From a virus (Duplodnaviria > Heunggongvirae > Uroviricota > Caudoviricetes), in IMG/VR virus record IMGVR_UViG_2537561688_000020: a stretch of DNA of 21,544 nt; one strand, 5' to 3'. Shown piece after piece: positions 1,777 through 21,544 of this stretch. Numbering within the stretch: the stretch's first letter is position 1; each line of letters begins with the position of its first letter. Under the pieces are notes generated by a model. That model was not told the DNA's origin. It saw only the letters and a program-made list of their open reading frames with translations, and searched no databases. Made by a program: the position numbers and the translations under genes.

Positions 1777-3372
1777 TTATGGCTGAGACTCTGGTTTAGC
1801 AATCTCGTTTATAAATTTCTTAGCTACAACAGTCTCATACTTTCTATAATCATCAAGATATTGAACATCTATATGATTTTTGTAGCGAGCATTAAATTTA
1901 TTTGCAGCCCCTGTTTTATCATCTTTACGTTCATCCGTTGGTCTGAAAAATTTATGGTAGCGGCGGGGTGATACCCCCTCAAAATCACAAAATATTACTT
2001 TGGAAGATTCTTCGTTCTTTGTTATTGCATCATTATGCAGATCAAGAGCAAGGCTTTTATCAAATGGCTCTATATATACTACTTTTTTTATTCCAGATGC
2101 GACAATATGCCTTGCACAGTTGTGGCAGGGGTAGGTTGTCGTAAAAAGAATTTTATCTTTAGTATCGCCGTTTTGTTTTCTAGCCATTGATGTAATGACG
2201 TCCATTTCAGCATGAATTGATCTGGAGTACTCCATTACACTTGATATTTTGCTGTCTTTGTAAATGCCTTCTGCAATATTATCTAATTTGTTTAGAAGTC
2301 GTGTTATATTAATATCGGCAACAGTTTGTCCTGCGGAAATACCTAATACACTTCTTACTTCGGTTGATAATATGCTTTTTATACGGTCTTTAATTTTTAG
2401 CTTGTTTGCATCATTATAACACTTACCACTTTTGTGAACGCATCGATGATCGTTATCAAAATCATCACTGCTATACAACCCGCCACCAGCTTTAGGTACG
2501 TCGTTCTTACCCACGGCAAGCAAATTCCCTTCATCATCAAACAGTGCAGCCCCTACTTGACGTGATAAACAAGCTGATTGTAATGATGTTGAAAAGGCAG
2601 CATACATACCTTTCTCGTTAAAAGTTGGTGTTAAACCATTTTTGCCATGAATAAGACCGAAAAACCGATCAATCTTCTTCTTTAATTCACTTTTTTGGCT
2701 GAAGTTATTTTTAATAAAAAAATCTGAATCAAGAATGGTTTCCCCGGTTCTTTGTCCATACGGATCAGAGGATTTATTATCAATATTGATAATTAAATGA
2801 AGGTCGTCCTTTGCCGATTCGTCAGCAATGAGATTCGGAATTCGGTAATCTAAATCGCGCAAAACTCCTAACAAATAGAAATTATGCTGATATATAACTC
2901 TGAATAACTCTATTTCTTCCGGCCTTTTGAATTGATCAATGATGAAGACAGTACCTTTATATTCATCATTATTATAATCAATATTCTTTTTCGCTGTTGC
3001 GATTGCTGCAATAGCAGCTTCTGCAAGCAACTCATTTTTTTCGTAATGTTTACGAAGTTTATTGGCAATATCCTGGAGTTTTAAATGTCTATTAACTTGT
3101 GTGCTTTCGGATACCTTCAGTGCTGCTGGCTCAAAATATAATGGGTCTTCCATAAGCGCACTTATGCGGATGTGTACAACATTATCCCCCCATTCTTTGG
3201 ATATCTCTTCGATAATTTTGTTTATCGTTCTCATGCCACATCCAACATATCCACACAATCCAAGATAAATATCTTTTGATTGTCGTGAATTCACAATCTC
3301 AAGTGATGATGCCGATGTTGAGCCTTTTTTTTCATTCAGCTTTTGTGGAGTTTTTTTTGCTGCTTCAGCCAT
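1777..3372 (-). CDS. dcdV: DcdV-like anti-phage deoxycytidylate (dCTP/dCMP) deaminase: N-terminal P-loop-like domain fused to C-terminal zinc CDA-fold deaminase
   Basis: 531-aa ORF. C-terminal zinc-deaminase signature: CLSRQVGAALF, then HAE (H387/E389), then PCHNC (C416/C419) and GIKKVVY, as in dCMP deaminases. N-terminal glycine-rich P-loop-like stretch GLCGYVGCGMRT. About 32% GC in a sampled stretch versus about 60% in the replication genes. Int-proximal cargo position. Confidence 0.7.
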   Translation of the reverse strand: MAEAAKKTPQKLNEKKGSTSASSLEIVNSRQSKDIYLGLCGYVGCGMRTINKIIEEISKEWGDNVVHIRISALMEDPLYFEPAALKVSESTQVNRHLKLQDIANKLRKHYEKNELLAEAAIAAIATAKKNIDYNNDEYKGTVFIIDQFKRPEEIELFRVIYQHNFYLLGVLRDLDYRIPNLIADESAKDDLHLIINIDNKSSDPYGQRTGETILDSDFFIKNNFSQKSELKKKIDRFFGLIHGKNGLTPTFNEKGMYAAFSTSLQSACLSRQVGAALFDDEGNLLAVGKNDVPKAGGGLYSSDDFDNDHRCVHKSGKCYNDANKLKIKDRIKSILSTEVRSVLGISAGQTVADINITRLLNKLDNIAEGIYKDSKISSVMEYSRSIHAEMDVITSMARKQNGDTKDKILFTTTYPCHNCARHIVASGIKKVVYIEPFDKSLALDLHNDAITKNEESSKVIFCDFEGVSPRRYHKFFRPTDERKDDKTGAANKFNARYKNHIDVQYLDDYRKYETVVAKKFINEIAKPESQP

Positions 3373-14168: not shown

Positions 14169-14921
14169 ATGAACCTTGAAGCCTTACCAAAATATTACTC
14201 CCCAAAATCTCCAAAATTGAGCGATGACGCACCGGCGACAGGCTCAGGTGGTTTAACGATTACGGATGTGATGGCTGCGCAGGGGATGGTGCAGTCGAAA
14301 GCACCGCTTGGGTTTGCCTTATTCCTGGCAAAAGTTGGTGTTCAGGATCCTCAATTTGCGATTGAAGGTCTGCTCAATTACGCGATGGCACTGGATAACC
14401 CGACATTGAACAAATTGAGTGAAGAAACCCGGTTACAGATCATCCCTTACCTTGTGAATTTTGCCTTTGCTGATTATTCCAGGTCTGCGGCAAGTAAGGC
14501 TCGCTGTGAGCATTGTGCTGGTACTGGATTTCATAATGTATTGCGCGAAGTGGTGAAACACTCCAGAAGCGGGGAATCTGTTATCAAGGAAGAGTGGGTG
14601 AAGGAACTATGTCAGCATTGTCATGGTAAGGGAGAAGTCAGCACAGCGTGCAGAGGGTGTAAGGGTAAAGGTATTGTCCTGGATGAAAAAAGGACCCGGC
14701 TTCATGGCACGCCTGTTTATAAGATTTGTGGGCGTTGCAATGGAAACCGGTTTAGCCGTTTACCAACCACACTGGCGCGGCATCATGTCCAGAAGCTGGT
14801 ACCAGACCTGACGGATTATCAGTGGTACAAAGGATATGCAGATGTCATTGATAAACTGGTTACAAAGTGCTGGCAGGAAGAAGCATATGCAGAGATACAA
14901 TTGAGAAATGTGACAAGATAA
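14169..14921 (+). CDS. Q-like late-gene antiterminator
   Basis: 250 aa from the ATG at 14169 preceded by GGAG. Cys-rich zinc-binding segment (CEHCAGTG ... CQHCHGKG ... CRGCKGKG). Followed by a candidate late promoter and terminator; position precedes the lysis genes. Confidence 0.65.
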   Translation: MNLEALPKYYSPKSPKLSDDAPATGSGGLTITDVMAAQGMVQSKAPLGFALFLAKVGVQDPQFAIEGLLNYAMALDNPTLNKLSEETRLQIIPYLVNFAFADYSRSAASKARCEHCAGTGFHNVLREVVKHSRSGESVIKEEWVKELCQHCHGKGEVSTACRGCKGKGIVLDEKRTRLHGTPVYKICGRCNGNRFSRLPTTLARHHVQKLVPDLTDYQWYKGYADVIDKLVTKCWQEEAYAEIQLRNVTR

Positions 14922-19259: not shown

Positions 19260-19580
19260 CACATTATGCGCTGTATCGTCGCCGTATTCCCGCATTAACC
19301 ATGACCGTAGCCCGACGGGGAACTCCTTCTGCGCGAGTGTGCGGGAATAATCAAAAACGATGCACACCGGGTTTTTACCGCGTTTATGGTTCGCGGGTTT
19401 GTCCCTCATGCTCGCCAGTCCCGTGCGGGGGTGGAAGAAACAGGACACTTACACAGATTCTTGTGGGCACGATGCTATGCCTTTCTGGATTATCCCGATG
19501 CCATTCATGCAAGGCGTTGTATCAGACGTTCGTCAGAGCTGTCAGGCTGACGGGTCCTCCCGGTGGGGTGGCCTGCCACG

Positions 19581-19597
19581 GGGCGGGAGCGTCGCGG
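19581..19597. other. Candidate cohesive-end site (cosN-like)
   Basis: acgGGGCGGGAGCGTCGCGG resembles lambda cosN (acgGGGCGGCGACCTCGCGG, about 14 of 18 positions). It lies about 180 bp upstream of the small-terminase start; lambda cosN is about 190 bp upstream of Nu1. Confidence 0.45.
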
Positions 19598-19766
19598 AAA
19601 AAGGCTAGTTTTTGAAATTTCATTCGTCATCACCACTACTGTAATGTATTGATATTGCAGTGGTTTTATTTTTGTGGTGTCGATTTTGATTGTTTTTTGT
19701 TCATCACTAACACCGTTTGCCTAAAGTTGTTCGCAAGATGCATGTTTAAAACATTCTGGAGCGGGT

Positions 19767-20261
19767 ATGGATCGAGAGTTAAAAAATCTGACGCTGAATA
19801 TCAGTCAACTGGCGGCACTGTCAGGTGTACATCGCCAGACTGCTGCGGCAAGGCTGCAAAATCTACCCGTTGCAGGGGGGCATGAAAGCAACCTCAAGCT
19901 TTATCGGGTGGTTGATATTGTGTCGGCATTTCTGGCATTACCACCGCCGGTTGCAGAAGGCGAAATGGACGCGCATGAGCGCAAAGCCTGGTATCAGTCT
20001 GAACGTGAGCGTCTTAAGTTCGAACAGGAAACGGCACAACTCATTCCGGCCAGTGATGTCAGACGGGAGTTTGCCATCTGGGCAAAAGCGGTCGTGCAGG
20101 TGCTGGAGACATTACCGGATATTCTTGAACGTGACTGCGGTCTGCAGCCTGCCGCTGTGAGCCGTGTTCAGTCCATTATTGATGATCTGCGCGATCAGAT
20201 AGCCCTGCGGGTGACCGAAGCAGGTGCGGATGATGAGGAGGAATTACAGCGGGAGGAGTAA
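19767..20261 (+). CDS. Terminase small subunit (Nu1-like)
   Basis: 164-aa ORF with N-terminal HTH-like segment (LNISQLAALSGVHRQTAAARL) and acidic C-terminus. Preceded by GGAG. Stop overlaps the large-subunit start. Confidence 0.6.
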   Translation: MDRELKNLTLNISQLAALSGVHRQTAAARLQNLPVAGGHESNLKLYRVVDIVSAFLALPPPVAEGEMDAHERKAWYQSERERLKFEQETAQLIPASDVRREFAIWAKAVVQVLETLPDILERDCGLQPAAVSRVQSIIDDLRDQIALRVTEAGADDEEELQREE

Positions 20262-21544
20262 TGCTGAATCAGGAAACCGCAAAGGCAGCACGAACCGATT
20301 CAGGTTATATCCTTCGCGCACCGAGACGAATGCGGGTTGCTGATGCCGTTGCTCAGTATATGCGGGTGCCCATGGGGGCAGGGAACTCAGTCCCGTGGGA
20401 TCCGCTGGTGGCACCGTATGTTATTGAGCCGATGAACTGCCTGGCCTCGCGTGAATACGACGCAGTGATATTTGTTGGCCCGGCACGAACCGGCAAGACT
20501 ATCGGCCTGATTGACGGCTGGGTGATTTACAACGTGATTTGCGATCCTGCTGATATGCTGATCATACAGATGACGGAGGAAAAAGCCCGCGAACACTCCA
20601 AAAAACGACTCGCCAGAACGTTTCGCGTCAGCCCGGAAGTGGTCAGTCGCCTGAGTCCGAACAAAAATGACAACAACGTTTATGACAGAACATTCCTTGC
20701 TGGTAACTACCTGAAAATCGGCTGGCCGTCAGTCAATATCATGTCCTCATCAGATTATAAATGCGTCGCGCTGACGGATTATGACCGTTTTCCGGAAGAT
20801 ATTGATGGCGAGGGGGATGCCTTCTCTCTTGCCTCAAAACGTACCACCACATTTATGTCCAGTGGTATGACGCTGGTGGAGAGTTCCCCCGGCAGGGATG
20901 TGAAGGATGTGAAATGGCGACGGACTTCACCGCATGAGGCTCCACCAACCACGGGGATACTGTCGCTCTATAACCGTGGCGATCGCCGTCGCTGGTACTG
21001 GCCCTGTCCACACTGTGGTGAGTATTTTCAGCCCTGCGGCGATGTGGTTGCTGGTTTCCGTGATATTGCCGATCCCGTGCTGGCAAGTGAGGCGGCTTAT
21101 ATTCAGTGTCCTTCCTGTTCAGGACGGATTATGCCTGAACAAAAACGTGAGCTGAACGGACGTGGGGTCTGGTTGCGGGATGGTGAATCCATCAATGCGG
21201 ATGGCAGTCGTTATGGTGATCCCCGACGCTCACGTATTGCGTCATTCTGGATGGAGGGTCCGGCAGCTGCTTACCAGACACTCTCGCAACTCGTTTACAA
21301 ACTGCTTACTGCAGAACAGGAATACGAGACAACCGGAAGTGAAGAAACACTCAAGACGGTTATCAATACCGACTGGGGATTACCTTATCTTCCCCGTGCC
21401 AGCATGGAGCAACGAAAAAGTGAACTGCTTGAGCAGCGGGCAGAGCCAGTTCCTTCCCGCAGTGTGCCGGATGGCGTTAATTTCCTGGTGGCGACAGTGG
21501 ATGTGCAGGCGGGACGTCATCGCCGTTTTGTGGTTCAGGTAACG
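20261..21544 (+). CDS. Terminase large subunit (lambda gpA-like), 3'-truncated by the window end
   Basis: Frame is open from the ATG at 20261 to the window end (428 codons, hand-translated; absent from the ORF track because it has no stop). P-loop GPARTGKT. The segment WYWPCPHCGEYF ... CPSCSG ... VATVDVQ parallels lambda gpA (ACPHCGEE ... AGIDSQ). Confidence 0.85.
   Translation, partial: MLNQETAKAARTDSGYILRAPRRMRVADAVAQYMRVPMGAGNSVPWDPLVAPYVIEPMNCLASREYDAVIFVGPARTGKTIGLIDGWVIYNVICDPADMLIIQMTEEKAREHSKKRLARTFRVSPEVVSRLSPNKNDNNVYDRTFLAGNYLKIGWPSVNIMSSSDYKCVALTDYDRFPEDIDGEGDAFSLASKRTTTFMSSGMTLVESSPGRDVKDVKWRRTSPHEAPPTTGILSLYNRGDRRRWYWPCPHCGEYFQPCGDVVAGFRDIADPVLASEAAYIQCPSCSGRIMPEQKRELNGRGVWLRDGESINADGSRYGDPRRSRIASFWMEGPAAAYQTLSQLVYKLLTAEQEYETTGSEETLKTVINTDWGLPYLPRASMEQRKSELLEQRAEPVPSRSVPDGVNFLVATVDVQAGRHRRFVVQVT

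Follow-up and report, generated by a model that had tools for sequence, protein, structure and literature searches.

The window analysed here, the whole stretch of 21,544 nucleotides, carries at positions 19552-19766 what we consider, with a probability of about 0.85, to be the cos of a lambdoid, mEp460/Ayreon-group prophage, arranged as cosQ, cosN and cosB directly upstream of terS and terL and used by the mechanism proposed below. The exact nick positions in this phage, the binding of TerS to the repeats and the use of IHF are predictions carried over from lambda biology. The following features make up the site and its adjoining terminase genes:

19552-19558, plus strand: cosQ-like heptamer GGGTCCT, with 22 nt between it and the predicted top-strand nick to its right (lambda: 23 nt)
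19576-19597, no strand assigned: cosN; the top strand is predicted to be nicked at 19580/19581 and the bottom strand at 19592/19593
19581-19592: predicted 12-nt 5' overhang GGGCGGGAGCGT, left by the cosN nicks
19593-19613, plus strand: right flank of cosN, CGCGGAAAAAGGCTAGTTTTT (family consensus CGCGG-R-AA-N-N-GGC-N3-TTTT)
19624-19637, plus strand: R3-like repeat with the core GTCATCACCAC, +44 to +57 from the nick
19642-19654, minus strand: IHF consensus TATCAATACATTA (WATCAANNNNTTR, exact) between R3 and R2, the equivalent of lambda I1
19673-19687, minus strand: inverted R2-like repeat, minus-strand reading AAAATCGACACCACA, matching the R3 core at 7 of 10 positions and conserved in position within the family
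19697-19712, plus strand: direct R1-like repeat TTGTTCATCACTAACA, matching the R3 core at 8 of 10 positions
19767-20261, plus strand: TerS, small terminase subunit, 164 aa (Pfam DUF1441, 2.7e-41; phrog_141 'terminase small subunit', 1.4e-73)
20261-21544, plus strand: TerL, large terminase subunit of the gpA family (GpA_ATPase PF05876, 2.9e-72; GpA_nuclease PF20454, 4.1e-25), cut by the window end

Positions 19578-19597 read ACGGGGCGGGAGCGTCGCGG, laid out as ACG, GGGCGGGAGCGT and CGCGG, and are identical at 16 of 20 positions to the lambda 20-mer ACGGGGCGGCGACCTCGCGG (the lambda cosN region was taken from NC_001416, where it runs ...AGGTTACG, GGGCGGCGACCT, CGCGGGTTTT). Identity is complete in the left (3/3) and right (5/5) parts and amounts to 8/12 in the overhang. 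Within the whole window, both strands considered, this is the unique top match to the lambda 20-mer, the runner-up reaching 14/20; shuffling the window 100 times gave a top score of 15 (obtained five times) and never one of 16. The skeleton ACGGGGCGG-N6-CGCGG has one exact occurrence in the window, with 0.07 expected even if two mismatches are allowed. A partial two-fold symmetry of cosN is seen at 7 of 14 pairs (6 of 14 in lambda), and 186 nt separate the first overhang base, 19581, from the TerS ATG at 19767, the respective distance in lambda being 190 nt. GC content is 0.78 over 19540-19597 and 0.35 over 19598-19766, compared with 0.47 for the whole window.

Most of what a first-pass annotation had stated about this core was confirmed by these values. 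The cosN string it quoted does lie at 19578-19597, its figure of about 14 matches out of 18 to lambda cosN was a fair estimate of the 16/20 counted over the 20-mer, its distance of about 180 bp to the small terminase start is close to the measured one and the segment downstream is AT-rich as described. The lambda-like character proposed for the site is borne out by the sequence, the partial symmetry, the distance to terS, the gpA-family TerL and the record ends of relatives. The extent has to be revised: the region set to begin at 19560 is indeed cos, but its left edge lies farther out, at the cosQ heptamer.

cosN, terS and terL share one strand, and the terL start at 20261 overlaps the terS stop codon. 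The genes upstream comprise a Rha-family gene, a lysis cassette, a DNA methylase, Q, replication genes, a LexA-like repressor and an integrase; the element is a lambdoid prophage with its cos at the expected internal position. TerL and lambda gpA align over 395 aa at 24% identity (E 3e-11). The label "Nu1-like" given earlier to the small subunit stands as a remote link, based on reciprocal profile matches over nearly whole lengths (window TerS against the Nu1 family phrog_57, 6.8e-10; lambda Nu1 against phrog_141, 5.6e-8), but the Pfam family is DUF1441 rather than Phage_Nu1 and BLASTP detected no similarity between TerS and lambda Nu1. A shallow hhalign comparison of the two proteins gave a full-length alignment with an E value of 0.0015 and a probability of only 17%, placing the N-terminal LNISQLAALSGVHRQT of TerS on VNKKQLADIFGASIRT of Nu1. 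PDB sequences searched with TerS as single query or with a profile of 10 sequences yielded nothing relevant, and a single-sequence AlphaFold2 model of TerS (mean pLDDT 66, 42-65 in the N-terminal DNA-binding region) was judged unusable. Taken together, we read the DUF1441 protein as a probable remote homologue of Nu1.

The closest match to the window is a prophage located between yjjG and prfC in E. coli Ec-U11, which differs at 4 of 21,544 positions (99.98% identity); the next genome reaches 98.5%. In the Ec-U11 prophage, a 5'-truncated pseudogene of the tail-tip gene J comes right after terL and a small DUF6148 gene and is itself followed by lom and tail-fibre genes; portal, capsid and tail genes are missing. 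This raises the alternative that the cos is genuine but a relic in the source strain, its head and tail genes having been lost, so that it is never cut or cut only if a related co-resident phage supplies proheads and tails. Such a state concerns the window copy alone, does not conflict with the preferred reading at the level of the phage lineage, and is held at somewhat less than even odds. A relative integrated at the same yjjG-prfC site possesses the full portal-to-J module, and the cos region is matched at one further place in the Ec-U11 chromosome (two places in the record). On the other hand, the deletion junction is found in one of 5426 complete genomes and could stem from assembly collapse between similar prophages; the window itself stops inside terL, leaving the deletion outside its view, and what it holds of terL is intact, as are terS and all cos elements. 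If real, an Ec-U11-type deletion means that the prophage makes no particles unaided despite its intact site.

For the lineage as a whole, the assignment as cos is strengthened by its relatives. Twelve phages with a DUF1441 TerS, from Escherichia, Salmonella, Klebsiella, Citrobacter, Hafnia and Providencia, were aligned on cosN and share a common plan in which cosQ, cosN (ACG, GGGCGG-N6, CGCGG), the right flank, an IHF site and three R-like elements are ordered and oriented as in lambda. The heptamer GGGTCCT occupies the equivalent position in lambda, cdtI, mEp213, Kp4865-4, Stx2_95 and yong2, while some of the 12 aligned phages carry the variant GGTACTCC. It is also present in 79 of 80 related IMG/VR loci, 73 of them with the 22-nt spacing, and probably serves as the packaging termination signal. 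The right flank at 19593-19613 is nearly invariant across the 12 phages; the form found in the cyanophage Cr-LKS3 is CGCGGAAGTCGGCAGTTTTT, making this a 21-bp block conserved from enterobacterial prophages to a cyanophage, which we infer to be a right half-site or an extended terminase contact.

The left border of the site is visible in a variability profile of 73 distinct upstream sequences from loci with 99-100% identical TerS. The sequences are highly variable up to about 19550, but between cosQ and the terS ATG variability drops almost to zero, indicating that cosQ, cosN, cosB and terS move as a single block; farther left lies a spacer of variable, mosaic make-up. Two ORFs called here (19301-19615 and 19360-19608, the latter matching an unnamed PHROG family) were rejected as genes. 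Compared with relatives about 85% identical in this part, substitutions in 19360-19577 are distributed over the codon phases as 16/15/22, hence with no third-position excess; these relatives carry a frame-breaking 1-nt indel, and both ORFs cross cosQ and cosN. The earlier suggestion that the cos explains the non-coding look of 19260-19620 is thus right as to the absence of coding, but the cos accounts for it only from about 19550 onward.

Further evidence comes from the ends of database records. Over positions 19260-19800, phages vB_EcoS-569R4, mEp460 and Ayreon share 96-98% identity with the window. In the records of mEp460 and Ayreon, the sequence opens 25 nt ahead of terS, an opening described as arbitrary in the Ayreon genome announcement, which merely expected the cos within about 1 kb upstream of terS and cites cdtI as GenBank AB285204. 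By comparison, the records of cdtI (NC_009514) and of the LF82 prophage Tritos (OV696610) start with GGGCGGGAGCGTCGCGGAAAAAGGCTAGTTTTT, equal to 19581-19613, and end with ...GGTGGGGTGGCCTGCCACG, the same bases as those up to 19580. The record of the Hafnia phage yong2 ends with ...CCGAG GGGGCAGCGACA and starts with CGCGGGAAACGGC, its ends bracketing the homologous 12-mer. The ends of these three records may have been placed by analogy with lambda: cos is absent from the discussion in the Tritos paper, and the literature search found no genome paper for yong2. The exact 12-mer GGGCGGGAGCGT was not found in the phage literature searched, and a scan of IMG/VR returned only near-identical prophage loci, among them no contig end at cos. 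For the cyanophage Cr-LKS3, 5' cohesive ends of 9 nt, GGGCTCGCG, were determined experimentally (PMC9303873). Its record closes with ...GGGTCCCTCC...GACGCG and opens with GGGCTCGCG CGCGGAAGTCGGCAGTTTTT, so that the measured cuts fall on the positions homologous to 19580/19581 and just ahead of CGCGG.

Several records are damaged at precisely this place. In the Ayreon record, the cosN core is swapped for a 153-nt chimera of sequences corresponding to window positions 14599-14683 (Q gene) and 20100-20171 (terS); the mEp460_4F5 and Flotzy records miss 3 nt inside the 12-mer; and the ASU11 record is without cosN. Prophage-derived sequences are intact. We infer that these defects in phage records reflect failed joining of physical ends by the assembler.

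The Cr-LKS3 ends bear as well on the exact position of the cuts. A cos that is cut off the lambda-equivalent positions, with an overhang that is shifted or of other length, e.g., 9-10 nt, would fit the variation of overhang length within the terminase family (9 nt in Cr-LKS3), the Stx2_95-type prophages with only 10 nt between ACG and CGCGG, and the polymorphism at overhang position 12 (T in 58 and G in 15 of 80 loci). Nevertheless, we regard it as improbable, given that ACG and CGCGG flank exactly 12 nt in the window, lambda, mEp213, Fels-1 and PSTCR8lys and that the record ends of cdtI, Tritos and yong2 fit a 12-nt interval.

The AT-rich segment between cosN and terS has the layout of a putative cosB, with a direct repeat, an IHF site, an inverted repeat and a second direct repeat in succession. 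The IHF consensus is matched once in the cos region and three times in the 21.5-kb window. Of the 12 family members, 10 have a site with no or one mismatch on the same strand, at +60 to +64. Lambda, included in the same scan, gave a one-mismatch site at +79 on the minus strand, the place of I1. The first-pass annotation had likened the string TTTTTGAAATTTCATTCGTCATCACC to the lambda cosB/IHF region; this string does contain the R3-like repeat and the conserved right flank of cosN, but the IHF site is not part of it, the exact consensus following just after at 19642-19654 on the minus strand. A terminator reading of the AT-rich hairpin with its T-run at 19635-19664, which overlaps the IHF site, was rejected: the hairpin has only three G-C pairs and is not seen in the distant relatives of the 12-phage alignment, where the IHF core is kept.

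The R3-like element of the window reads TCGTCATCACCAC (19624-19636), and most of the 12 family members have a (T)CATCATCATCA-type element in these alignment columns. The R3-like repeat would be the primary TerS binding site of cosB. At the R1 position, a (T)GTTC-N3-CA-Y-C block is kept across the family. The type of the repeat differs between phages, being CAC in the window, ASU11 and Gifsy-2, CAT in Fels-1, mEp213, Chris1, yong2 and Stx2_95, and CTGTCAC in PSTCR8lys. Within one phage, copies of the R3 core recur downstream, and the three copies vary together from phage to phage, a concerted change that is the behaviour expected of TerS recognition sites. The order of elements corresponds to R3-I1-R2-R1 of lambda cosB (Murialdo and Feiss 2022, PMC9026076). 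The proposed cosB is nonetheless the least secure part of the model, its repeats being short, degenerate (7-8 of 10 positions) and situated in AT-rich DNA.

Headful (pac) packaging, under which the GC-rich motif would be a product of chance or a regulatory element, is hardly credible: no support for it was found, the weak hairpin at 19635-19664 being the sole alternative feature, whereas TerL is of one family with the terminase that cuts cos in lambda (cos packaging was also what the Ayreon authors predicted, on the basis of TerL phylogeny), the motif stands above chance by the shuffles and the expected count given above, and it is conserved together with cosQ and its flanks across genera and coincides with the record ends of related phages.

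The cos reading leads to the following mechanism. TerS would bind the three R-like repeats in the AT-rich cosB at 19624-19712, with IHF bending the DNA at 19642-19654, and this would position the gpA-family TerL on cosN. TerL would then nick the top strand at 19580/19581 and the bottom strand at 19592/19593, and strand separation would leave the 12-nt 5' overhang GGGCGGGAGCGT. The virion chromosome would accordingly have its left end, where the terminase genes lie, at 19581 and its other end at 19580/19592. cosQ would act in termination once the next cos arrives.

A broader proposal, tentative and rather doubtful at present, is that the DUF1441 small terminases form a packaging-specificity class of their own, marked by three repeats of the type TC-R-W-CA-Y-C in R3-I1-R2-R1 layout, and that an Ec-U11-like prophage, its head and tail genes lost and its replication, lysis, cos and terminase functions kept, behaves as a satellite of a co-resident relative. 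As far as could be found, the cosB plan for DUF1441 small terminases is undescribed, and the model offered here for this class is testable.

The novelty is modest and consists, besides this cosB plan, in pinpointing the cos of the mEp460/Ayreon lineage; the known picture of cos packaging is unchanged. The cos region was matched in 2119 of 5426 complete E. coli genomes. For mEp460/Ayreon-type prophages, the probable ends of the virion genome are now fixed, the chimeric stretch at cos in the Ayreon record is recognized as an artefact, and the ORFs called across the cos region, including one PHROG family, are probably spurious.

Compared with known systems, the site is closest in plan to lambda. 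The two share the cosQ heptamer GGGTCCT, the flanks ACG and CGCGG with a 12-nt interval, the first six overhang bases (GGGCGG), the partial dyad, an IHF consensus on the same strand right of the first repeat, repeats in direct-inverted-direct orientation, a distance from cosN to terS of approximately 190 nt and a gpA-family TerL. They differ in 4 of 12 overhang bases, in the spacing from cosQ to the nick (22 nt in the window, 23 nt in lambda), in the small subunit, where a DUF1441 protein takes the place of Nu1 with no similarity by BLASTP, and in a TerL just 24% identical. Moreover, the lambda R sites, of the form CGTTTCC..., are unrelated in sequence to the TC-R-W-CAC-type repeats of the window. 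A blastn comparison of the window cos region with both lambda ends found no extended homology, the shared parts being the short cosQ and cosN motifs only. Vahanian et al. in 2017 reportedly surveyed cosN in lambda-like phages.

cdtI (NC_009514/AB285204) and Tritos agree with the window at every base of cosQ, the spacer and cosN and on through the 33 nt that follow the nick to the right, whereas their cosB has GGCGGCGGCAACA where the window has TCGTCATCACCAC, the distance to terS is about 235 nt and TerS is 41.7% identical. For mEp213/LLS, a putative cos 5'-GGGCGGCGCGCT has been given (PMC12315714, citing Vahanian et al. 2017 and M. Feiss, personal communication). This phage has a DUF1441-type TerS 57% identical to that of the window, the same cosQ, cosN flanks and right flank, and an IHF-like site at +63; it differs in the middle of the overhang (CGCGCT versus GAGCGT), in its repeats of the CATCATCATCA type and in the placement of terS, whose start follows R1 immediately and is about 126 nt away from the nick. 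Cr-LKS3 resembles the window in a TerS 40% identical, a GGGTCC cosQ-like element, a left nick ahead of GGGC and the right flank CGCGGAAGTCGGCAGTTTTT, and differs in its 9-nt overhang GGGCTCGCG and its cyanobacterial host. In PICIs, phage-inducible chromosomal islands which take over lambda-like terminases, cosQ and cosN are almost the same as in the helper phages, and the cos lies beside an rpp gene without a phage-type cosB (PMC9026076). In the window, the cos is followed by terS and terL and contains repeats of the phage family, which identifies it as a phage cos and not a PICI cos: an ordinary lambda-type site of a common E. coli prophage kind.

The variability profile was calculated from 73 distinct sequences with near-identical TerS, drawn from the IMG/VR loci of close relatives (L026-L105). 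It revealed a highly variable left arm reaching to approximately position 19550 of the window and an almost invariant stretch from cosQ rightwards. Thus, cosQ marks a sharp mosaic boundary, located at ~19550 just to its left. One locus among these relatives, L073, carries an unrelated left arm as far as cosN and lacks cosQ.

Several deposited phage genomes are damaged precisely at cosN. Upstream of terS, the record of ASU11 (ON416862.2) is missing approximately 44 nt including the whole cosN, and the records of mEp460_4F5 (two compared sequences, L001 and L002) and Flotzy each lack 3 nt within the predicted 12-nt overhang. Judged from sequence, we read these gaps not as real deletions but as bases that were lost where the assembly met physical ends. 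The GenBank record of Ayreon (MF807953.1, 44227-44708, compared as L025) hosts a 153-nt chimera in place of the cosN core:

L025 positions 184-336, equivalent to window 19584-19595: Ayreon chimera

Its two parts correspond to window 14599-14683, from the Q gene, and window 20100-20171, from terS, and a CDS annotated as ‘putative late gene regulator’ extends across this artefact. Within the window itself, an ORF at 19360-19608 (82 aa) spans both cosQ and cosN and matches phrog_17397 (1e-47). A coding signature was looked for in this ORF and none was seen; the protein family may consist of ORFs called spuriously across cos sites.

Further to the right, the IHF core is enclosed by a terminator-like inverted repeat (19635-19664), AT-rich, followed by TTTATTTTT and with a terminator-like score. 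Its right arm contains one highly variable position (~19656-19657), at which the window differs from most close relatives. In mEp460_4F5 and Ayreon this site reads ATTACAGT, giving a perfect 8-bp repeat, ACTGTAAT/ATTACAGT.

Beyond the right end of the window, the prophage of E. coli Ec-U11, the genome nearest to the window, has terL and a DUF6148 gene abutting a 5'-truncated J gene (L108, NZ_CM192138.1, 22821-23790), and the portal, capsid, and tail genes are absent. Of 5426 complete E. coli genomes, only this one contains the junction, which therefore reflects a deletion confined to the strain or else a collapse in the assembly. At the other end of the window, a further gene adjoins the integrase:

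1777-3372, minus strand: cytidine/dCMP deaminase-domain protein, 531 aa

The identical gene of Ec-U11 is designated ‘anti-phage dCTP deaminase’ by RefSeq and, consequently, the gene is, going by this annotation, a prophage-borne defence gene. An AIPR-family gene replaces it at the same place in some relatives.

Comparison across phages and prophages showed a 21-bp block right of cosN (window 19593-19613; CGCGG-R-AA-N-N-GGC-N3-TTTT) to be more conserved than the overhang itself and to be common to enterobacterial prophages and cyanophage Cr-LKS3 (L106, 1-30). Upstream of terS in Stx2_95 (L015, LC567838.1), the interval between the conserved flanks ACG and CGCGG amounts to 10 nt (GGGCGGGCGG) instead of 12. 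This shorter interval, found in Stx2-converting prophages whose TerS belongs to the same family as that of the window, suggests that in these elements the overhang is shorter or the cut is displaced. The last overhang base (window 19592) is polymorphic among the close relatives: of the 80 loci, 58 have T and 15 have G, and the equivalent base in Fels-1 is G.
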